In this document: piece after piece, positions 7,296-16,365 of the stretch
Layout: each line of letters begins with the position of its first letter
Numbering within the stretch: position 1 is the stretch's first letter
Source of the DNA: Thermoanaerobaculia bacterium
Lineage (GTDB): Bacteria > Acidobacteriota > Thermoanaerobaculia > UBA5066 > Gp7-AA6
Assembly: GCA_036395755.1 (NCBI GenBank)
Contig: DASWCZ010000023.1
Coordinates: 7,825 to 71,824 of the forward strand
Reading direction: 5' to 3'
DNA length: 64,000 bases
Made by a program: the position numbers and the translations under genes
Notes under the pieces: generated by a model
The model's input: only the letters and a program-made list of their open reading frames with translations
What the model was told of the DNA's origin: nothing
The model's database searches: none

Positions 7296-7934
7296 CTATC
7301 CCGCGGCTTTCAGAGCGACGTCGTCGCGCCGATGGTAGATCGAGTCGACGAGGCCGTACTTCTTCGCTTCCTCCGCTTCGAGGATGTAGTCGCGGTCGGT
7401 GTCCTTCGCGATCTTTTCGATCGACTGACCGGTGTGATTCGAGAGGAGCTTGTTGATCTGGTCGCGCAGCTTCAACATGTCCTTCGCGTGGATCTCGATG
7501 TCCGCGGTCTGACCTTGCAGACCCGTCGTCCACGGCTGGTGGATCAGGAAACGCGAGTTGGGCAGCGCGTAGCGCTTTCCGGGCGCGCCGGCCGCCATGA
7601 GAACCGCCGCAAACGACGCCGCCTGCCCGATGCAGATCGTGGAGACGTCCGGCTTCACGTACTGCATGGTGTCGTAGATCGCGAAGCCCGCCGACGTCAC
7701 GCCCCCCGGCGAGTTGATGTAGAAGGAAATGTCCTTGTCGGGGTTCTCGGATTCCAGGAAGAGCATCTGGGCGATGATCAGATTCGCGATCTGGTCGTCG
7801 ATCGGAGTGCCCAGGAAGATGACGTTGTCTTTGAGCAAGCGCGAGTAGATGTCGTATGCGCGCTCCCCCCGGCTCGTCTGCTCGATCACCATCGGTACGA
7901 GAACCATTCCGCCTCCCTCGTGGTCGTCTTCCAT
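7296..7934 (-). CDS. clpP: ATP-dependent Clp protease proteolytic subunit ClpP
   Basis: The core [25 protein letters not shown]...[14 protein letters not shown]...HQP has the Ser, His and Asp residues in ClpP context. The tracked 326-aa ORF has a GC-rich spurious N-extension. The start was chosen at the ATG ([13 protein letters not shown]) with an upstream GAGGG. Confidence 0.9.
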
Positions 7935-7978
7935 GCCCTCAACCCTTCGTTGCACGCGGCCAATCCTCCGCCCCGCGC

Positions 7979-9313
7979 TCACGGCCGCTCCACCGGCTCC
8001 ATCGAGGGTAGCACCCGCGCGGAGGAGATCAAGAGATCGAGCGCCTGGGAGAGGCGCATTTCGTCCCGAAGGGCTTCGAGCCCGTCGTTTTTCGCGAGAC
8101 GCTCGCGCAGCTCCGAGGTCTCCACGCCGCGCCGCGCCGCGGCGCGCCGGATCTCCGCTTCGAGCTCCGTGTCGGTGATCGCGATCTCCTCGCGGCGGGC
8201 GATTGCATCGAGAGCCAGGTACTCGCGGACCCTCCGTTCGGCGCCCGGCCGGGCGTCCTCCTTGACTCTTTCCCACTCGACTTCCTTCGCGTCGACCCCG
8301 TTCGCCGCGAGATAGCGCGCGTACTCCCGCAGAGACGCGTTCAGCTCGGACTCGACGAGCACTTCCGGCGTGGGGACGGCCGTCTTCGCCAGGATCGTGC
8401 CGAGGATGTCGTGTCGAAACTTCCGACGGCGACCCGACTCTTTCTCCTGCCGCAGGTTCGCGCGGACTTTCTCGCGAAGAGTCTCGGCGCTCGGCGGGTG
8501 CAGGCCCGCGGGGCCTGTCCCCGCCACCGCGCGCGCGAATTCATCGTCGAGAGGCGGCAGCCGCTTCTCCTTGAGCGCGACGAGCGTCACTTCGTAGTCG
8601 ACTGTCTTCCCGCGGAAGTTCTCGTTCGGAAACTCGTCCGGGAAGGTCTTGCGAAACGGCCGTGTCTCCCCGGGCAGCGCGCCGGTCAGGGCTTCGTTGA
8701 TCTCGGGCATGGAGTCGGAATGGCCGACCTCGAGGGTGATCTTCTCGTCCCGGAACGTGCGTGGGTTCTGGCCGGGTTCCAAGATTTCGACGAATCGTCC
8801 CGCGATGTCCGCGACCGCGTAGTCCCCGGCTGCCGCGCGCCGTCCCTCGATCGGATGGAACTCCGCGTGCGACTCGCGGATTCGATCGAGAACTCCGGAG
8901 ACCTCCTCCTCGGACGGCTCGGTGGACACGTCCTCGACCGGAATCCCACGGTACTCCCCCGGGTCGACGACCGGCTTCAAGTCGAGGTGCGCGGAGAAGC
9001 GGATCGGCCCGGGCTGGCTCCATTCGAGGTTTTCGACCCGGGGAGAGCCCAGGATCACGAGGTTTTTCTCCTCGATGGCGGAGGAGAGCGCCGCGGGGAG
9101 GAGCCTCTCCAGCACTTCCTCGCGGATCTCCCCGGCGAACCGCTGCACGACGAGATGCTCCGGTACGTGGCCGCGACGGAACCCGGGCATCGCCGCGCGC
9201 CGGGCAAAAGCGCGCGCGACAGCGCCGTAAGTCCGCTCGACGTCTTCGGCGGGGACCTCGATCTCGAGCGTCGTCGAGGTCTGCGACTCCTCGCGCATAT
9301 TCCGAACCACCAT
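7979..9313 (-). CDS. tig: Trigger factor (ribosome-associated chaperone / PPIase)
   Basis: It is 444 aa and lies upstream of clpP-clpX-lon in the canonical order. The N-terminal ribosome-binding region and FKBP-like middle domain are present. Confidence 0.85.
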
Positions 9314-9378: not shown

Positions 9379-10941
9379 TCAGGTTCGCGGCGAGATTCTC
9401 CGTGAAGCGGGCCGCGGTCGGCTCACCCGGATGCGCGGCGCGGGCGCGGGAGGAGCGGCGGAAGCGAGCGCGGTGGAGACCGCCGCGAGAACGTCGATCC
9501 TCCCCCAACCGAACACCGGGTTGGGGATCGCCGAGCCGGGGACGTCGCCGCACGACTGCTCCGACGTCAGGCCGACGGCCGTCGCGCGGAGGAGCGCTTC
9601 GGTTTCGGGAACGTGGTTCGCCAGCCAGGGCGCGGCCGACCAGATGAGCGCCACCGCGCCGGAAACGTGCGGGGTCGCCATCGACGTCCCGGAGAACCGC
9701 GTGTAGGCCGCCCCGGGCACCGACGATCGGATCTCGACTCCGGGCGCAACCACGTCCGGCTTTATGCGATTCGAGCCGTCGACGGTCACCGGGCCGCGGC
9801 TGCTGAAGCTCGCGATCGTGTCGGACAGAGTCGTCGCGCCGACGGAGAACGCGGCGTCGTAGAAGCCCGGGACGGTGTCGACCGTCGAGCAGGCCGAACC
9901 GCTGTTTCCGGCCGCGACCGACAGAAAAATGCCCGCCGCCCTCGTGTTCTCGACGACGGCGCGCAGGACGTCCGGATCCGTACATCCTTCGCTCGGCGGA
10001 CACCCCCAGGAATTGCTGATGACGTCCGCCCCGAGATCGGGCCGCGGATTCGCGCCCGCGGAATCGGTCGGAGCCAGGAAGAACTGGAAGCACTCGGTGT
10101 AGCGGGCGGGGGTGCCGTCGCCCCGGTCCATGTTCCGACAGGCGATCCAGCGGGCCCCCGGCGCCATGCCGATCTGGTTGTCGCCCCCGTCCGTCCCCAC
10201 CGCGGTGCCGGTCACGTGCGACCCGTGCGAGCTGTCGTCGCAGGGAACGGCGGAATCCGTTCCGCAGGGATTGCCCGGGTTCGCCGTGTGGATCGAATCG
10301 TGCCAGTTGTACGCGTGCGAAACCGAATCGCCGTCGAACCCGCGATAGCGATTCTTCAGCGCCGGGTGCTCCCAGTCGACACCGGTGTCCGCGATTCCCA
10401 CGACCACGCCCTGGCCCGTGAAGCCGAGACTCCAGACCGAAGGGGCGTGCACGAGATCCAGGCTCGCTTCGATCGCGGTCGCGGACAACGGCGCAACCTC
10501 TGCGCCCTGTCTCCGCGGAAGGACCATGTGGGCCGGGCGGTTCGCGGCGACGAGCGCGACGTCGTCGCGGGACGCGAGTTCGTCGGCGAGAGGCCGGTCG
10601 GATTCAACCGCGATCATGTTGACCAGATAGAACGCCTGAAAGCGTGCGCCAGCTCGTTCGAGGCGGCGGCGGAGAGGCGCCTGCGTGGAGTCGGCCGTCG
10701 ACCGCAGCGCCTCGTACACGAACCGCCTCTTCTCCGCGCGGTCCGAGATGTTCGCCGCACCGCTCAAGTCCGCCTGCCTGCGGAGAACGACGAGGACCGA
10801 AGCGGTCTCATCCGCCTGCTTGCCCGCAAAGATCTGGTCGAGGACCGCTGCGTCCGCCGCGGGAACGGGGCGCGCGAGCAGTACCAGCACCAAGATCGGG
10901 AGCAGGCGCTTCAGACTGGACACGGGAGTTTCGAAACGCAT
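9379..10941 (-). CDS. Secreted subtilisin-like serine peptidase (S8) with an N-terminal inhibitor-I9 propeptide
   Basis: It has a signal peptide MRFETPVSSLKRLLPILVLVLLARPVPAADA. The catalytic motifs are GIADTGVD (Asp), SHGSHVTGTAVG (His) and GTSMATPHVSGAVAL (Ser). Confidence 0.85.
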   Translation of the reverse strand: MRFETPVSSLKRLLPILVLVLLARPVPAADAAVLDQIFAGKQADETASVLVVLRRQADLSGAANISDRAEKRRFVYEALRSTADSTQAPLRRRLERAGARFQAFYLVNMIAVESDRPLADELASRDDVALVAANRPAHMVLPRRQGAEVAPLSATAIEASLDLVHAPSVWSLGFTGQGVVVGIADTGVDWEHPALKNRYRGFDGDSVSHAYNWHDSIHTANPGNPCGTDSAVPCDDSSHGSHVTGTAVGTDGGDNQIGMAPGARWIACRNMDRGDGTPARYTECFQFFLAPTDSAGANPRPDLGADVISNSWGCPPSEGCTDPDVLRAVVENTRAAGIFLSVAAGNSGSACSTVDTVPGFYDAAFSVGATTLSDTIASFSSRGPVTVDGSNRIKPDVVAPGVEIRSSVPGAAYTRFSGTSMATPHVSGAVALIWSAAPWLANHVPETEALLRATAVGLTSEQSCGDVPGSAIPNPVFGWGRIDVLAAVSTALASAAPPAPAPRIRVSRPRPASRRISPRT

Positions 10942-11145
10942 CGGATGGACAAACTATGCCCCAGTACCGTACGGGTTGGCGAATTTCCGGGTCTCGCCAC
11001 GCTTCTCCCGAAGGCTCGCGCGAGGTCTCACGACCATCGTCGGGGGACTCTTTCCTCGGCAAACCGTGACCCCAGTCACGGGAACCAGCCGGAAGCACGC
11101 GTTACACTCCGTGCACTCCCATTGCCGTCACCGGAGGATCAGCCG

Positions 11146-11487
11146 ATGGCGGATCGAACAGAGAGGCGGCGTTTTGCGCGGATCCGGAGACGGTACCCGG
11201 TGGAATTCCGGGCGGCGGGAAAGACCTGCTCCGGTTTCACCCACAACCTGTCAGCGGTGGGACTGTTCATCTGCTCGGTGTACTTCCCCAGGCCTGGAAC
11301 TTCGTTATCGCTGCGCATCAAGGTCGCCGAGGGTAAGAGCTTCCTGATGCGGGTCGAGGTCGTTCGGTCCTACAGGGTCCCTCAGCAGCTGACCCGTTTC
11401 GTTCCGAGCGGCTTCTGCGTTCGGTTCCAGCAGGCCCCCGAGGAGTACTTCCAGCTTTTGGCCCGCCTGTTTCGCGTCGCCGCCTGA
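11146..11487 (+). CDS. Single-domain PilZ (c-di-GMP binding) protein, copy 1
   Basis: It is the C-terminal 113 aa of the tracked ORF 9613..11487. It has the PilZ motifs RRRFARIRRRYPVEF (RxxxR) and NLSAVG (D/NxSxxG). The ATG at 11146 is preceded by GGAGGA. Confidence 0.7.
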   Translation: MADRTERRRFARIRRRYPVEFRAAGKTCSGFTHNLSAVGLFICSVYFPRPGTSLSLRIKVAEGKSFLMRVEVVRSYRVPQQLTRFVPSGFCVRFQQAPEEYFQLLARLFRVAA

Positions 11488-11695
11488 GACCGCGACGCAC
11501 CGGCGCTCGCCGCGATCTGTCAGCGACTCATCACCGGAGAGATCCGCCTGCTGCCGCAGGACGACGAGAAAGGACGCCGTCTCACCGGACACCTTTCCCG
11601 CGAAATCCGATCGATTGTCGACGAAGAGGCGGCGAGGACCTCGCCACGAGCGCGCCCAGGAGAGACAGCGCGAAAAACGACCGTCGAAGGATCAT
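11305..11695 (-). pseudogene. Decayed duplicate of the 5' end (signal peptide plus I9 propeptide start) of the S8 subtilisin gene
   Basis: Minus-strand ATG at 11695 gives MILRRSFFALSLLGALVARSSPPLRR... then a stop. A shifted frame gives ETASFLVVLRQQADLSGDESLTDRGERR, which matches 20 of 31 residues with the S8 N-terminus ETASVLVVLRRQADLSGAANISDRAEKRR. No catalytic domain follows. Confidence 0.55.
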
Positions 11696-11838
11696 CGGAT
11701 GGCCTCTCCGAACCTCCCGCCGTCCCGGAATATGCGCATCATCGACCTGCAACCCTCGACCATTGTCCAATGGTCCCGGCCTGAGAAACTCCCTAGAATG
11801 GTCTCGAACTCCCATTGCCGTCATTGCGGAGGTGAGCG

Positions 11839-12171
11839 ATGACGGAAAGACGACGTTTCCCGCGGATCAAACGGCGATTCATGGTCGAGTTCGAGCATCA
11901 GGGGCGGCGCGATTCGGGCTACACGCACGATCTGTCCGCCACGGGGCTCTTCATCTGCTCGATCTATGAGCCAAAGCCCGAGAGCCGGCTGCGGATCCGG
12001 ATCTGGCTTCCGAACCGGGAATCCATCCGGCTGCAGGTGAAGCTGGTTCGCTCGAATCGCGTGCCCGCCCACCTGACGCGATTCGTTCCCGACGGCTTCT
12101 GCGTGCGCCTCGAACAGGCCGACGAGCAATACTTCCAGCTCCTCGCCACCCTCCTCCGCGTCGCCGCGTGA
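11839..12171 (+). CDS. Single-domain PilZ (c-di-GMP binding) protein, copy 2 (tandem paralog)
   Basis: The 110-aa protein aligns to copy 1 over its whole length (RRRFPRIKRRFMVEF ... DLSATGLFICS ... YFQLLATLLRVAA). It shares the upstream motif CTCCCATTGCCGTCA with copy 1. Confidence 0.7.
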   Translation: MTERRRFPRIKRRFMVEFEHQGRRDSGYTHDLSATGLFICSIYEPKPESRLRIRIWLPNRESIRLQVKLVRSNRVPAHLTRFVPDGFCVRLEQADEQYFQLLATLLRVAA

Positions 12172-12247
12172 AGAGCGCCGACGCCGATGGTGCTGATGGG
12201 GTCAGACCTGAATCGCTGAATTTGGGTCAGGCTAGCTCTCAATCCGG

Positions 12248-12332
12248 TGGTGCGAGAGGAGGGACTCGAACCCTCACGGGTCTCCCCACGGGATCCTAAG
12301 TCCCGCGCGTCTGCCGGTTCCGCCACTCTCGC
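12248..12332 (-). tRNA. tRNA-Leu, anticodon TAG
   Basis: The reverse complement folds as a type-II tRNA. The acceptor is GCGAGAG/CTCTCGC and the anticodon stem-loop is CGGGA-CTTAGGA-TCCCG. There is a 15-nt variable arm, a T-arm GAGGG-TTCGAGT-CCCTC, and an encoded CCA. Confidence 0.85.
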
Positions 12333-12367
12333 AGTGGCGAACATCGTAGGCGCAAGGGTCTTTGGAT

Positions 12368-13492
12368 TCAATGGATACCGGCTCTCCAGGCGAAGACCTT
12401 GCCTTTGAGGGTGCCGACGTAGAGAGTGCCCTCCGACGAGCCGACCCCCCGGATCACCCCGTCGAATCTCTGGGACCAGAGGCGAGAGCCGTCGGAGAGG
12501 CGAAACGCAAAGACCTCGCCCCGCTCGTTTCCGGCGATTACGGCATGGTCCCATAGGTAAGGCCTCGAGGAGCTCCAGGGGCCCGACGTTGTGTCACTCC
12601 ACCGAATGGCCGAAAGCGAGGAATCGACGCAGGCGAGCTTTCTCTCGCCAAAAAAGGCGACGAGGGAATCCTCGGCGAAGAGAAGTCGCCCAGTCGGTTC
12701 CTCTTCGACCTTGAAGTCTGCCGCGACAGTCCCGCTCTTGGGGTCAAGGCGGTAGAGATGTCGGTCGGAGGTGCCGGCATACAGGTTTCCGCCTCCGAGA
12801 AGCACGGAGGTCGAGATGCGGCCCGGGAGCGCCCGCTTCCAAAGAACTTCGCCGGAGTGGGCGTCGAGCGCGTACACGGCGCCGTCGAGACTTCCGAAGA
12901 AGATCCGGTTTCCCTGCACGGCGGGAGTCGAGCTTCTGGCGTATGGGTCGGTCGGGTGGCCGGTTGTAAACTTCCAGACCAGCGCGCCCGTTTTCCAGTC
13001 CAGGCAGAGGAGCTCGTCCTGGAGCGTGACGGCATAGATGTTCGAATCGATCCGCTGGACATCTGCGCCGACTCCGGGGGTCACCTCATACTTCCAGCGC
13101 GGCTTACCCGTGTTCCGTTCGAAGGCGTACAGGTGCGCGATGGCGCCGTCGCTGCCGGTGACGACGAGGTCTTCGACGACGAGCGGATCCGTGTGGAACT
13201 GGACCGCAGCCCCGTCTTGCTGCGTGTCGTAACTCCACCGCACCGTGCCCGTCTTCTTCTCGAGTGCCCGAAAGAATCCGTTGCAGGAGCCGACCAAGAC
13301 GAGGTCCCCCGCGACCGTGGGGGTGGCGAAGACTCAACCGCCGGTGTCGTAAGTCCAGAGCGGCCGCGAATCGGCCACGGGTTTCGGGGCCTCTGTCGGA
13401 CTCTGGTGCCCCGGGGCGGTTGCCACGAGGAGCACCACCATCAAGAGAGAGGGAACGCCCAGAGACCTTTGCATCCGTCCCGAACTCATCAT
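12368..13492 (-). pseudogene. PQQ-repeat (BamB-like) beta-propeller lipoprotein gene interrupted by an in-frame TGA at 13334–13336
   Basis: ATG at 13492 encodes the signal peptide MMSSGRMQRSLGVPSLLMVVLLVATAPG...LWTYDTGG, then TGA, then continues in the same frame as VFATPTVAGDLVLVGSCNGFF and on into the tracked 309-aa ORF. That ORF has repeated WxxxTG / LxALDxxxG beta-propeller blades. Confidence 0.55.
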
Positions 13493-13669: not shown

Positions 13670-16024
13670 TCACCGTGCGGCCGAGGCTGAAGCTCCGAGG
13701 CTTCTCTCGAGCTTTCGTCCTCTCGCCGCGAAGTCCCGCGAAAGACTCGGCTCTCCCGTTCGGCTGTAGAGATCCGCGAGGACGTAGCAGGCGAGCGCGG
13801 CTTCGGCCGGGTCTGGCCGCATCTCAAGGGAGAGCTTCGCCAGCCGGATTCCTTCGGAGAGCTCGATCCCCCGATCCAGGAGGTTTCGGGCGAGATAGAG
13901 GGCGGGAAGCGGAGCCTCGGGATGCAGACGCTGCACTTCCTTCAAGATCTCGGCTTCGGGAGACAAACGTCCGAGCCTCCGGGAGAGAATCATCAGTTCG
14001 CGGAACGGGCGCCCGTCGTTCGGCGCGACCTGAACCTCGAGAGCGTACTCCTCCCAGGCGGCGTCCGGCCTCCCCTGCTGCTCGAGAACGACGGCCCGGC
14101 AATAGTGAGCGCCGCGCGTCCGCCGGTCGAGCGCGAGCGCTTCGTCCGCCAGTCGGCGCGCCGCCTCGAGGTCTCCCCGGCGTAGCCGGATCTCGGAGAG
14201 CGCCGCACGAGCCTGCGCTGATCGCGGCTCGAGCTTCAGCACGCGCGTTTCCAGCTCTTCCGCGCGCGCACGGTCTCCTCGGGCGTCCGCCGCCTGGCCA
14301 AGCAGGAGGAAAAAGCGCGAGTCGTTCGGGAAGAGACGGAGCGCGGTTTCAATCGTCCTTTCCGCCGCCGCAGGCCGGCCGGCGGCGAGCTCCGCGACGG
14401 CAAGGCCGAGCGCGACGGTCGGATCCGACGGTTTATGCTCGACCGCGCCGGCCAGCACCTGCATCGCCTCCACGAACCTCTTCTGCTGCAGGTAAAGCGA
14501 CCCGAGCGCCGTCTCGGCGTCGACGATCTGCGGATCGGCCGCCAGGATCGCGCGCAAGAGGCGCTCTCCGCCGGAGAAGTCGCGTTGCTCGACGAGCGAG
14601 CGAGCGCGGAGCAGGTCGTTATAGAGGCCGATCCTTCGACGCGGAGCGGGCAGCGCGCTCGCTCCCCCCGGCTCCGGCGCCGCCCCGGTCAGGTAACCGA
14701 GCGATGCCAGCTTGCGCAGCGTCTCGGGATCGGCGCGCGACATCGCGACTGGCAGCGCACCCCGGGACCACTCCTGCGACCAGGAAGCGAGCCGACGCCG
14801 CAGCGGGAGCGCGCGGTCAGACGCCGAGTCGACGAGGTTGCGGCGCTCCCCGGGATCCGCCGCGAGGTCGTAGAGCTCCGGCTCGGGCGAGTCGATCCAC
14901 TTCCAACGGCGGTCGCGCAGAGCGTGGAGCTCGCTCCAGCCGAAGTGAAGACGCGGATAGTACGTTTCGGCGTACGCCGGGCGCTCGGTGAAGCCACCGC
15001 TCCCGCGCAGGAGCCCAACGAGGCTTTGTCCCTGGAGTCCGGCAGGCGCGGGGAAGCGAAGGAGCTCGGCGACCGTGGGCAGCACGTCCACGAGCGAGAC
15101 GGTCTCGGCCCGCCGGGTCCCCGCCCTCTCGCGATCCGGCAGTCGGAAAATCAGCGGGACCCGGAGCGTCGTCTCGTAGAGGAACAGGCCGTGTCCGGAC
15201 TCCTCGTGCTCGCCAAGGCTCTCCCCGTGGTCGCCCGCGAGCACGACCAGCAAGGGCTCCTCCCGCTCCCTGCGCTCGACCCGCTCGAGGAGCCGTCCGA
15301 TCTGAGCGTCGGCGAACGCGACTTCTCCGTCGTATGGCCGGTCCGCGAATTCCTCGCGATACGGGGAGGGCGGCTCATAGGGATCGTGCGGGTCGTAGAA
15401 GTGCGCCCACAGAAAGAACGGTCCTTTTGGCCGGCGCTCGAGCCAGGCGAGCGCTCGATCGGCGACTTCGTTTCCTGGCCGCTGGATGTCTCCGATCGAG
15501 GTGATGCCGGTTCGATGTGTGTCGAAGTCGTCGACGTACTCGGAGAAGCCGCGATTCAGTCCCCACCGCGAATCGAGGACGAACGCCGCGACGATCGCCG
15601 CCGTTCGATAGCCGCGGTCGGAGAGCAGCGTCGCGAGCGTCGGCAGCGTCGGCGGAACGAGGAAGCTTCCATTGTCCCGCACTCCATGATGCAGCGGATA
15701 GGTTCCCGAGAAAAGCGACGTGTGCGACGGCAGCGTCAGCGGAGTCGGCGAAATGCACGCTTCGAAGAGCACCCCTTCGCGGGCGAGCCGGTCCATGTTC
15801 GGAGTGCGCGCGCCCGCGTATCCATACGCGCCGAGCCGGTCCGCGCGGAGCGTGTCGACGGTGATGAAGAGCACGTTCCACGGGCGCACTCGGCTCTCTC
15901 TCCCGATGCGGCCCCGGAACAGAACGAGAGCGGCCGCGACCGCGATTCCCAGCGCGAGGCCGAACGCGAACAGCCGCGGACGGACCAGGCGGCTTCGCCG
16001 GGTCGCACCCGCCGAACGACGCAC
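13670..16024 (-). CDS. Membrane-anchored sulfatase (alkaline-phosphatase superfamily) fused to C-terminal TPR repeats
   Basis: The N-terminal region WNVLFITVDTLRADRLGAYGY...PTPLTLPSHTSLFSGTYPLHHGVRDNG is sulfatase-like, with the CxPxR position represented as TPxR/S. The C-terminal half has multiple TPR-like repeats. The tracked TTG start is at 16096. I prefer the GTG at 16024 (VRRSAGATRRSRLVRPRLFAFGLALGIAVAAALVLF), which is preceded by GAGGAAAG. Confidence 0.7.
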   Translation of the reverse strand: MRRSAGATRRSRLVRPRLFAFGLALGIAVAAALVLFRGRIGRESRVRPWNVLFITVDTLRADRLGAYGYAGARTPNMDRLAREGVLFEACISPTPLTLPSHTSLFSGTYPLHHGVRDNGSFLVPPTLPTLATLLSDRGYRTAAIVAAFVLDSRWGLNRGFSEYVDDFDTHRTGITSIGDIQRPGNEVADRALAWLERRPKGPFFLWAHFYDPHDPYEPPSPYREEFADRPYDGEVAFADAQIGRLLERVERREREEPLLVVLAGDHGESLGEHEESGHGLFLYETTLRVPLIFRLPDRERAGTRRAETVSLVDVLPTVAELLRFPAPAGLQGQSLVGLLRGSGGFTERPAYAETYYPRLHFGWSELHALRDRRWKWIDSPEPELYDLAADPGERRNLVDSASDRALPLRRRLASWSQEWSRGALPVAMSRADPETLRKLASLGYLTGAAPEPGGASALPAPRRRIGLYNDLLRARSLVEQRDFSGGERLLRAILAADPQIVDAETALGSLYLQQKRFVEAMQVLAGAVEHKPSDPTVALGLAVAELAAGRPAAAERTIETALRLFPNDSRFFLLLGQAADARGDRARAEELETRVLKLEPRSAQARAALSEIRLRRGDLEAARRLADEALALDRRTRGAHYCRAVVLEQQGRPDAAWEEYALEVQVAPNDGRPFRELMILSRRLGRLSPEAEILKEVQRLHPEAPLPALYLARNLLDRGIELSEGIRLAKLSLEMRPDPAEAALACYVLADLYSRTGEPSLSRDFAARGRKLERSLGASASAAR

Positions 16025-16365
16025 GCCGGACGGCGCTTTCCTCAATCGAAGAAGGCCGGGAGACGGATTGGGAGACTCACCGGAAGAGTTTCTCAAGTTC
16101 TCGCGGGGTTGATAAGCGTCTCTCGGCCGGAGCGCGCCTGCGTAGAGCGCGCGGGGATGTCGAGACCACCGTAGACCAGCAGCACCGGCGTCTGGACGCG
16201 GTCGAGGAAGAAGAACGGAGAGTTCGCGAAGTGACGATCCCGGAGCCCTCCTGTCGACTCCCTCGTTTTCCGACTCCGGTGCCTGAGGTTCGCTCGAAAC
16301 CGTCGGCTTTCACCAGGGGTGCTCCGGTTGAAAGTCGAGCCGGGGCCTGAAAGCTACCCCTCGGC

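Follow-up and report, generated by a model that had tools for sequence, protein, structure and literature searches.

A Diverged Tandem Duplication with a Second PilZ Gene at an S8 Peptidase/tRNA-Leu Locus of Thermoanaerobaculia

Most tandem duplications observed in bacteria are young, nearly identical, and unstable. Accessory gene islets, often found beside tRNA genes, are exchanged by homologous recombination between conserved flanks, and homology-facilitated illegitimate recombination is also known. Hairpins that pair the start codon within a translation-initiation region, such as operator hairpins and RNA thermometers, form another familiar group. PilZ proteins of 80-140 amino acids (aa) with a single domain act in trans as adaptors (bioRxiv 10.1101/2020.02.11.943704; PMC11250160). 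Features resembling each of these systems come together in a 64,000-nucleotide (nt) stretch of DNA from Thermoanaerobaculia (Acidobacteriota), hereafter the window, to which all coordinates refer unless a contig label such as L001 is given. Here the 5′ end of a subtilisin-family (S8) peptidase gene, a divergent control region, and a PilZ gene (unit 1, ~10716-11487) are followed by a diverged tandem copy (unit 2, 11488-12171), which contains a relic of the S8 5′ end and a second PilZ gene, PilZ-2, and then by a tRNA-Leu gene. Our overall best explanation, to which we assign a probability of roughly 0.6, is an old tandem duplication at this S8/PilZ/tRNA-Leu locus, with PilZ-2 kept, the relic decaying, and unit 2 exchanged.

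The duplication, its relic, and its age

Comparison of the two units by blastn gives four collinear matches in the same orientation that together run from 10769-11487 to 11543-12171. They pair 10769-10841 with 11543-11614 (72.6% identity, expectation value (E) 1e-6), 11115-11153 with 11808-11846, 11230-11277 with 11914-11961, and 11386-11487 with 12070-12171 (76.5%, E 4e-18). After removal of both PilZ open reading frames (ORFs), 10700-11145 and 11488-11838 still align with a local score of 42, a value that none of 1000 dinucleotide shuffles reached (19.9 ± 2.4, maximum 32). The S8 5′ segment inside unit 1 (10716-10941, minus strand, codons 1 to ~75) is 66.5% identical to the relic (11488-11696, minus strand) over 191 aligned columns, and none of 500 shuffles scored as high. 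The units are adjacent and collinear and resemble each other over more than a single gene, so the region qualifies as a tandem segmental duplication. The initial annotation had proposed as much and had made its proposal depend on extended similarity outside the PilZ ORFs, which is present. It had also placed the junction immediately after the PilZ-1 stop, and unit 2 indeed starts within 0-12 nt of that stop, with the junction at 11488-11500. The left edge of unit 1 had to be moved from 10700 to ~10716.

The order PilZ-1, relic, PilZ-2, and tRNA-Leu is also present in L086, a separate metagenome contig that is 98.7% identical to the window over 4710 nt. The same four-part layout recurs in lineage B (L081-L084, contigs of four European Nucleotide Archive samples that are ~91% identical to the window), in L089-L091, and in L094, and junction-spanning contigs number at least 10, each assembled independently and drawn from various samples and assemblers. 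The early concern about an assembly artefact can be set aside because independent assemblies share the layout and because the copies, at only ~70% identity in DNA, are too different to be mis-assembled as repeats. The duplication is not an assembly artefact.

Since the break on the left side occurred within S8, unit 2 opens with only a truncated 5′ end of that gene. The parent gene (9379-10941, minus strand) is intact and encodes 520 aa with a signal peptide and a propeptide. Pfam Peptidase_S8 (PF00082) matches residues 176-480 with 172.7 bits (E 1.3e-50), which covers the catalytic domain, and the tig-S8 gene order is kept in relatives. In the relic, the start codon, signal peptide, and early propeptide can be recognized without the catalytic domain, and similarity ends at about codon 75 of 520. 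A tblastn comparison matches S8 residues 38-72 with 23 of 35 identities (E 4e-13). The initial annotation had described a frame-shifted relic, which is correct, but two frame breaks are present: the signal peptide (MILRRSFFALSLLGALVA), then VLAASSSTIDRI, and then FAGKVSGETASFLVVLRQQADLSGDESLTDRGERR (the frame of FAGKVSGETAS...) are each in a frame of their own. The relics of the window and lineage B differ by five indels of 1-2 nt in ~205 nt, compared with none in either PilZ ORF, and the frame breaks of lineage B lie at other places than those of the window. The relic of L094 has additional indels of its own, including a 4-nt deletion. In L089-L091, a 183-nt deletion corresponding to window 11565-11747 has removed the signal-peptide half of the relic, and in the distant L085 two PilZ genes stand 4 nt apart without a relic or a second promoter. 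Compared across lineages, these states read as a series of progressive loss of nonfunctional DNA. The indels and deletions that break the frame differ from one carrier lineage to the next, and by this comparison the relic is a nonfunctional pseudogene. A gene for a 37-aa protein (MILRRSFFALSLLG...) was considered at the same place and rejected, as lineage B shifts frame after residue 7 and L089 deletes the region. The 10-mer CATCGGATGG over the S8 start codon (minus strand) occurs exactly at 10939-10948 and again at the relic start codon, 11693-11702. Unit 2 may thus still have the former start of S8 translation, perhaps with its promoter, directed antisense into PilZ-1; the loss of the relic start-codon region from L089-L091 counts against a conserved role there.

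The two PilZ proteins had been called near-identical receptors. They are 59% identical, and the Nei-Gojobori estimates of nonsynonymous (dN) and synonymous (dS) divergence are 0.34 and 1.59, the latter saturated. All trees described here are neighbor-joining trees, divergence estimates come from at most ~110 codons, and the relic alignment covers 147-213 nt. In the PilZ tree, the PilZ-2 sequences of the window, lineage B, and L085 form a clade with 99-100% support that lies outside the group of PilZ-1, L002, L005, and L006, and PilZ-1 joins L002 in 93.6% of bootstraps. In the S8 tree, the window gene groups with L001 and L002 in 95.6% of bootstraps to the exclusion of the relic, the nearest S8 to which is that of L003 (80.8%). 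The S8 genes of the window, L001, and L002 have a derived base in common at five informative sites, and at all five the relic has the ancestral one. The placement of the relic is immune to protein-level acceleration because the relic is noncoding. Its position outside the S8 clade, together with the five ancestral sites, therefore argues that unit 2 was not copied from the resident genes after the split from L001 and L002. An origin in this lineage from resident genes would make each copy closest to its neighbor, which is the case for neither the relic nor PilZ-2. Saturation of the synonymous sites, together with a position of the relic and PilZ-2 alike outside the clade that unites the window's own genes with their nearest orthologues, marks the duplication as ancient and not as a recent event in this genome. 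The statement that the duplication created the second gene in this genome has to be withdrawn on the same grounds.

Distribution and probable exchange of unit 2

A comparison with relatives had been suggested as a way to find the single-copy state, and many relatives do have a single PilZ. The species representatives L001, L002, L003, L005, L006, and L007 have the tig-S8-PilZ-tRNA-Leu synteny with one PilZ, closer to PilZ-1, and no relic, and more distant genomes keep tig-S8 with no PilZ at that place. A simple single-copy ancestor is not borne out, as unit 2 is common to at least five other lineages. Metagenomic relatives that are 88-90% identical in DNA are a mixture of carriers and noncarriers, so that unit 2 is optional among close relatives. 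In a backbone tree built from window 10525-11487, carriers and close noncarriers form one clade (92%) with L001, L002, and L005 outside, and within this clade the noncarriers L087/L088 and L092/L093 form a subclade with 91% support.

The right-hand anchor of the locus is the conserved tRNA-Leu(TAG) gene (12248-12332, minus strand; ARAGORN; Rfam tRNA 56.5 bits), which is at least 90% conserved among the relatives compared and lies 76 nt, rather than the 77 nt first given, beyond PilZ-2. The intervening sequence (12172-12247) appears to be the original PilZ-to-tRNA spacer, as the same GGGTCA...CTGAATCGCTGAAT type follows the single PilZ of L092, L093, and L002. A 26-nt indel separates the window from lineage B in this spacer, and within the spacer (12198-12247; L092 2702-2751) lies a direct repeat of the GGGTCAG..CTGAATCGCTGAAT type. 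In L087 and L088, one PilZ is followed by a 24-nt spacer fused to tRNA-Leu. This spacer has GCACCGGCGGTC, which matches the end of the relic (window 11497-11508) at 11 of 12 positions, and we hold with moderate confidence that it is probably the scar of a deletion of window 11509-12247.

Synonymous sites indicate that unit 2 has a history of its own, younger than that of the flanking PilZ-1. Between the window and lineage B, synonymous differences number 19/84 in PilZ-1 and 2/85 in PilZ-2 (p 4e-5), and between the window and L094 they number 19/87 and 3/84 (p 4e-4). The noncoding relic likewise differs little between the window and lineage B (9/205). The contrast is plainest for L085, where, over the same 65-68 codons, the proportion of synonymous differences is 0.58 for PilZ-A/PilZ-1 and 0.21 for PilZ-B/PilZ-2 (p 2.6e-4). 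Between carriers, the divergence of unit 2 is 2-10 times lower than that of the adjacent PilZ-1. Because adjacent genes differ so strongly in divergence, PilZ-1 and PilZ-2 do not appear to have one shared vertical history. Gain and continuing exchange of unit 2 by homologous recombination within the window's clade, rather than simple descent, would account for a unit 2 that differs much less from carrier to carrier than does the PilZ-1 gene that it adjoins, and we consider this the probable course of events. The original duplicated unit would have comprised the first ~225 nt of S8, the ~205-nt divergent control region, PilZ, and at most ~12 nt past the PilZ stop, and its truncated S8 copy could never yield a protease. 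Later recombination would have been anchored in the conserved PilZ 3′ end or the junction on one side and in tRNA-Leu on the other.

Another tandem PilZ pair is present between S8 and tRNA-Leu in L095 (2506-3333) and also in L096 and L097. In L095, a PilZ of the L007 type (P0053) lies next to S8 and is followed by a 162-nt spacer and a PilZ of the PilZ-1 type (P0020); the spacer has a palindrome (GTGAC-TCGG-ATCAC), TAGACT, and a leader. A tblastn search for an S8 relic in this spacer gave only a weak match (E 0.038), and no relic is claimed. The pair suggests repeated duplication or shuffling of PilZ genes at the locus. As judged from these gene types, the interval between S8 and tRNA-Leu contains either a single PilZ gene or a pair, with at least three paralogous types represented overall, a pattern of birth-and-death turnover and not of a single event.

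The other side of the tRNA gene varies as well. Directly past tRNA-Leu in L087, which is 90% identical to the window, is a phage-type integrase gene (PF00589, L087 4517-5746), and because this gene adjoins tRNA-Leu, the tRNA gene appears to be an integration hot spot as well. Downstream of tRNA-Leu, the window has a PQQ/BamB-like propeller (12368-13297) and a sulfatase-TPR protein (13670-16096); L092, L093, and L095, unlike the window, have a Ser/Thr kinase-TPR protein. In L001, a 21-nt exact duplicate of the tRNA-Leu end (1236-1256) lies ~145 nt from the tRNA gene and resembles an att-type remnant of integration or excision. Repeats with GGAGTCTCCC occur between PilZ and tRNA-Leu in L085 (537-613), L003, and L005, with none in the window, and in the same interval of L085 the 24-nt unit GGAGTCTCCCGGGTCGCGGCGCGC is present three times. 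On the other flank, the ClpP ORF (window 7296-8276, minus strand) has a long Arg/Gly-rich N-terminal extension from a GTG, compared with 212 aa called for ClpP of L087; the extension is probably an ORF-calling artefact of high G+C content. Positions 1-368 of L086 no longer match the window (upstream of 7626, inside or upstream of the clpP region), which may mean that the region was rearranged, that the strains differ here, or that the end of the contig is chimeric.

The PilZ proteins and their control regions

PilZ-1 (11146-11487, plus strand, 113 aa) is the orthologue of the relatives' single PilZ, and PilZ-2 (11839-12171, plus strand, 110 aa) is its diverged paralogue. The full PilZ ORF ascribed to copy 2 is intact. 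Both proteins score well above the Pfam PilZ (PF07238) cutoff of 22.5 bits, with 41.3 bits for PilZ-1 and 41.6 bits for PilZ-2. The motifs for binding of cyclic di-GMP (c-di-GMP), RxxxR and (D/N)xSxxG as defined in a PilZ survey (bioRxiv 10.1101/2020.02.11.943704), can be found in each: E-R-RRFAR and NLSAVG in PilZ-1, and E-R-RRFPR and DLSATG in PilZ-2. R5 and R9 are invariant in 47 family members, and PilZ-2 of L089 deviates in the second motif (ELSATG). An AlphaFold2 model of PilZ-2 from the 47-sequence family alignment has a mean predicted local distance difference test score (pLDDT) of 89.8 and shows six β-strands and a C-terminal helix. A fold search with this model returned PilZ domains as all of the top 18 Protein Data Bank (PDB) matches, led by MapZ/PA4608 (template modeling (TM) score 0.75, 2.2 Å) and then PA0012, MotI, and Alg44. 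A search of PDB chains with the PilZ-2 sequence gave no meaningful match. By profile, motifs, and modeled fold, PilZ-2 is a canonical PilZ of the c-di-GMP-binding type, with the binding itself predicted.

The two genes evolve differently. The ratio of nonsynonymous to synonymous divergence (ω) is 0.12-0.23 for PilZ-1, in keeping with purifying selection, and 0.48-0.63 for PilZ-2 over the long term. Measured against lineage B, PilZ-2 reaches 1.4, on 8 nonsynonymous and 2 synonymous changes, and the comparison with L094 gives 14 and 3. At the protein level, PilZ-2 evolves 3-4 times as fast as PilZ-1 (ω ~0.5-0.6 compared with 0.15-0.2). These rates indicate relaxed or diversifying evolution of PilZ-2, the ORF of which is intact in all carriers, with no stop or frameshift and with length changes in frame only. 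All members of the PilZ-2 clade have substitutions (F28Y, P34A, G48E, G60R/Q, S85D/G, and P95D) at six positions where conservation among 66 proteins of the PilZ-1 type is 90% or higher, and these replacements appear to fit a changed function better than plain decay. An apparent frameshift in the L001 PilZ proved to be a run of N in the scaffold and no mutation.

Upstream of the PilZ genes, alignment gives the order of a palindrome, a −10-like hexamer ~20 nt farther on, and then a conserved leader made up of a 16-mer, GGAGG, and ATG. The 16-mer, ACTCCCATTGCCGTCA, occurs exactly at 11115-11130 and 11808-11823 (plus strand), and no third copy was found in the 64 kb even allowing 3 mismatches. 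It is conserved at 16/16 positions in L002, L087, L089, and L092 and at 15/16 in L001, and 11808-11838 has 0 substitutions between the window and lineage B. The initial annotation had called it a shared promoter motif, placed with the ribosome-binding site at equal distances from each ATG. The 16-mer does lie 31 nt before the ATG in both copies, but the Shine-Dalgarno (SD) sequence lies 8 nt from the ATG in copy 1 and 6 nt in copy 2. Its designation as a promoter does not hold either, since the 16-mer is downstream of the putative −10-like hexamers and, on that basis, would be the start of the transcript leader, and the promoter-proximal palindromes are completely different. For PilZ-1 the hexamer would be TACACT (11103-11108, plus strand), the position of which is conserved in the orthologue alignment, and for PilZ-2 TAGAAT (11794-11799, plus strand), from alignment of the upstream regions. 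TACACT is also found in L001, L002, and L005, TAGAAT is also found in L003 and L007, and a TACAGT variant occurs among the orthologues. Two other readings of the 16-mer were rejected: as a σ54 promoter, because the −24 GG is absent in both copies even though TTGC is present, and as coding sequence, because an in-frame TGA lies between the 16-mer and the PilZ-2 ATG. A scan of 10850-12400 for intrinsic terminators found none.

Palindrome 1 (CCGTGAC-CCCA-GTCACGG, 11064-11081), in the divergent S8/PilZ-1 control region, is a putative site for a dimeric regulator. It is the sole exact match in the window, is kept as GTGAC-N4-GTCAC upstream of PilZ in L001, L002, L003, L005, and L006, and has a counterpart of the same pattern upstream of the type-1 PilZ of L095. 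Palindrome 2 (GACCATTG-TC-CAATGGTC, 11758-11775) is a perfect palindrome to which a different regulator may bind. No second copy occurs in the window, and 100 shuffles gave 0 matches; it is identical in lineage B and L094 and has one mismatch in L089, with variable flanking bases. The palindromes lie at 65 nt (unit 1) and 64 nt (unit 2) from their ATG and have no half-site positions in common. They are centered ~42 and ~41 nt upstream of transcript starts (near 11115 and 11807) that are predicted from the −10-like hexamers only.

Within the leader, CCGUCA, which forms the 3′ half of the 16-mer, has its complement in UGACGG at the start codon and the bases after it. The hairpin predicted for the PilZ-2 leader (11818-11845, plus strand) has a 10-base-pair (bp) stem, CCGUCAUUGC/GCGAUGACGG, that includes the AUG and places the SD GGAGG in an 8-nt loop. 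Its folding energy of −17.7 kcal/mol (z −3.07) is equaled by 1 of 200 shuffles. As a matter of speculation, ACUCC (the 5′ half of the 16-mer) could pair with the SD as a pseudoknot. A search of 10800-12450 with Rfam 15, which includes the c-di-GMP riboswitches, at E up to 1 returned the tRNA only. In the mechanism that we propose, two single-domain c-di-GMP adaptors would be expressed from separate promoters, and both copies would keep a leader (16-mer, SD, and start codon) that folds to pair the start codon with the SD in the loop, much more strongly for PilZ-2. In copy 2, another palindrome would have taken the place of the site centered ~41-42 nt ahead of the predicted transcript start, so that PilZ-2 would answer to a different regulator and would probably bind a different partner.

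Competing explanations and known systems

An ancient duplication could also have descended purely vertically from a deep ancestor of the S8-PilZ lineages, with many independent losses of unit 2; the lower divergence of unit 2 would then be due to sampling noise or to recombination that replaced PilZ-1 at a later time. Deletion of tandem copies happens easily, L087 and L088 have the probable deletion scar, and deletion has been piecemeal in L089 and L085. The second tandem PilZ type of L095-L097 suggests an old multicopy array with birth-and-death turnover, and the noncarriers within the 92% clade are one subclade. Vertical descent nevertheless requires at least 4-6 independent losses (L001, L002, L005, L006, L003, and L007), and it leaves unexplained why PilZ-B of L085 is ~4 times closer synonymously to PilZ-2 than PilZ-A is to PilZ-1 and why the same asymmetry is found in lineage B and L094. 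We consider it unlikely, though it deserves to be taken seriously. A recent tandem duplication in this genome with a very fast-evolving copy 2 has in its favor a simple geometry, with unit 2 directly after unit 1 and S8 intact in the left copy, and the faster protein evolution of PilZ-2. However, fast protein evolution is no explanation for saturated synonymous sites, the relic is without all five substitutions common to the window, L001, and L002 S8 genes and outside their clade, and unit 2 is also carried by lineages (lineage B, L089-type, and L094) whose PilZ-1 has a dS of 0.14-0.27 to the window and by the distant L085. A recent origin is very improbable.

Loss of function is a different kind of alternative, in which PilZ-2 is becoming a pseudogene and only PilZ-1 matters. 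Values of ω of at least 1 against lineage B and L094, the ExSxxG in place of DxSxxG in L089, and the dispensability of unit 2 in relatives all point that way. In six carrier lineages, however, the 330 nt of PilZ-2 have 0 frameshifts or stops and in-frame deletions only, compared with at least 12 indels in the adjacent ~320 nt of relic and spacer of the same lineages. Long-term ω for PilZ-2 is 0.56-0.63, below 1, members of the PilZ-2 clade have kept the motifs, the leader, and all six clade-specific replacements, and the structural model is confident. A nonfunctional PilZ-2 is thus hard to reconcile with the data, and we judge it quite improbable. False expansion of a repeat during metagenome assembly, for which the general risk attached to contigs of metagenome-assembled genomes alone can be cited, is scarcely credible given copies ~70% identical in DNA and the contigs from different samples and assemblers that span the junctions.

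Several observations count against our preferred explanation of an old duplication with an exchanged unit 2. Its sole evidence for lateral spread is unequal synonymous divergence in short metagenomic contigs, which may be chimeric, or PilZ-1 may have been replaced rather than PilZ-2 transferred. In L089 and L090 the asymmetry has the same direction and is not significant (p 0.13-0.46). A donor of unit 2 was not found: a search with the PilZ-2 protein gave two clusters only, a metagenome scan gave only the near-identical L086, and the 70 PilZ-1-type proteins compared are 42-60% identical to PilZ-2 (51-61% by a second estimate for this type), with no donor among them. Counts are few, and the long branches of PilZ-2 and the relic are open to long-branch attraction toward the root; the 5/5 character test is less exposed to this problem but involves few sites. 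The scar in L087 is a 12-nt match only, in GC-rich sequence. The high ω in the closest comparisons and the D-to-E change of L089 would also be expected of early decay of PilZ-2. For the control regions, a strict σ70 scan of 10850-12400 found no full promoter and no −35/−10 pair, the PilZ-1 hairpin (11125-11152, −13.4 kcal/mol, z −0.42) folds no better than shuffles, and covariation in the leader-hairpin alignment is weak to almost absent, as the pairs are mostly invariant.

A bolder reading of the locus takes the 0.7-kb PilZ-2 unit to be a recombination-borne accessory cassette that holds a c-di-GMP adaptor under diversifying selection, a new operator, and a family-specific, previously undescribed leader for translational control (CCGUCA/start-codon pairing and ACUCC/SD pseudoknot). 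We regard this combination as improbable. If it were true, the locus would display the rewiring of a signaling adaptor and its passage from lineage to lineage, and the leader would count as a new class of cis-regulatory RNA in Acidobacteriota. Otherwise the biology is ordinary, with a gene duplicate, a junction pseudogene, and divergence of a paralogue, and both single-domain PilZ adaptors and junction pseudogenes are of known kinds. The main value of the locus is as a well-resolved example, with the conserved leader noteworthy, and as a clean natural experiment in which a neutral relic lies beside a retained paralogue. Stages found across lineages include a full relic, independently frame-shifted relics, a half-deleted one, a fully deleted one (an operon-like PilZ pair), a probable excision scar, and the single copy. 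It also illustrates how a c-di-GMP receptor family may diversify, with motifs and leader kept, the upstream operator replaced, and six otherwise invariant surface or core positions changed. In annotation, no gene should be called at 11488-11696, and PilZ-2 deserves to stand as a real one. A more general caution is that a tandem repeat in one genome is not necessarily a recent local event.

In its geometry, the locus is like other bacterial tandem segmental duplications with a truncated junction gene: the units are head to tail, one break interrupts a gene and leaves a 5′ fragment as its internal copy with the outer copy intact, the paralogue diverges, and the fragment decays. Unlike typical cases, it is saturated at synonymous sites with the relic still recognizable, and presence of the module varies. 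Like recombination-borne islets, unit 2 is patchy among close relatives, fixed between a conserved gene and a tRNA, and less diverged than its flank, with an integrase at the same tRNA-Leu in L087; unlike them, it is only ~0.7 kb, has no mobility gene, and is a paralogue of its neighbor and not foreign DNA, and its transfer would be a matter of inference. If the starts predicted from the −10-like hexamers are right, the palindromes would lie near −41.5, where class II activator-dependent promoters have a CRP/FNR-like site for a dimeric activator; the strict σ70 scan found no −35/−10 pair to go with them. The PilZ-2 leader resembles operator hairpins and RNA thermometers in having its AUG in a 10-bp stem and the SD in the loop, and it differs from them in having no Rfam match, no convincing covariation, and a PilZ-1 version that is not significant. 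The PilZ proteins themselves are closest to single-domain adaptors such as MapZ/PA4608, PA0012, and the DgrA type, with ~110 aa, a Pfam score above the cutoff, both motifs, an R before RxxxR, and, as modeled for PilZ-2, a predicted six-stranded β-barrel and C-terminal helix that superpose on MapZ. They depart from these known adaptors in that PilZ-2 is ~20% identical to any solved PilZ and in that the family of this locus is confined, as sampled, to Thermoanaerobaculia-like Acidobacteriota, where it adjoins an S8 protease and tRNA-Leu.

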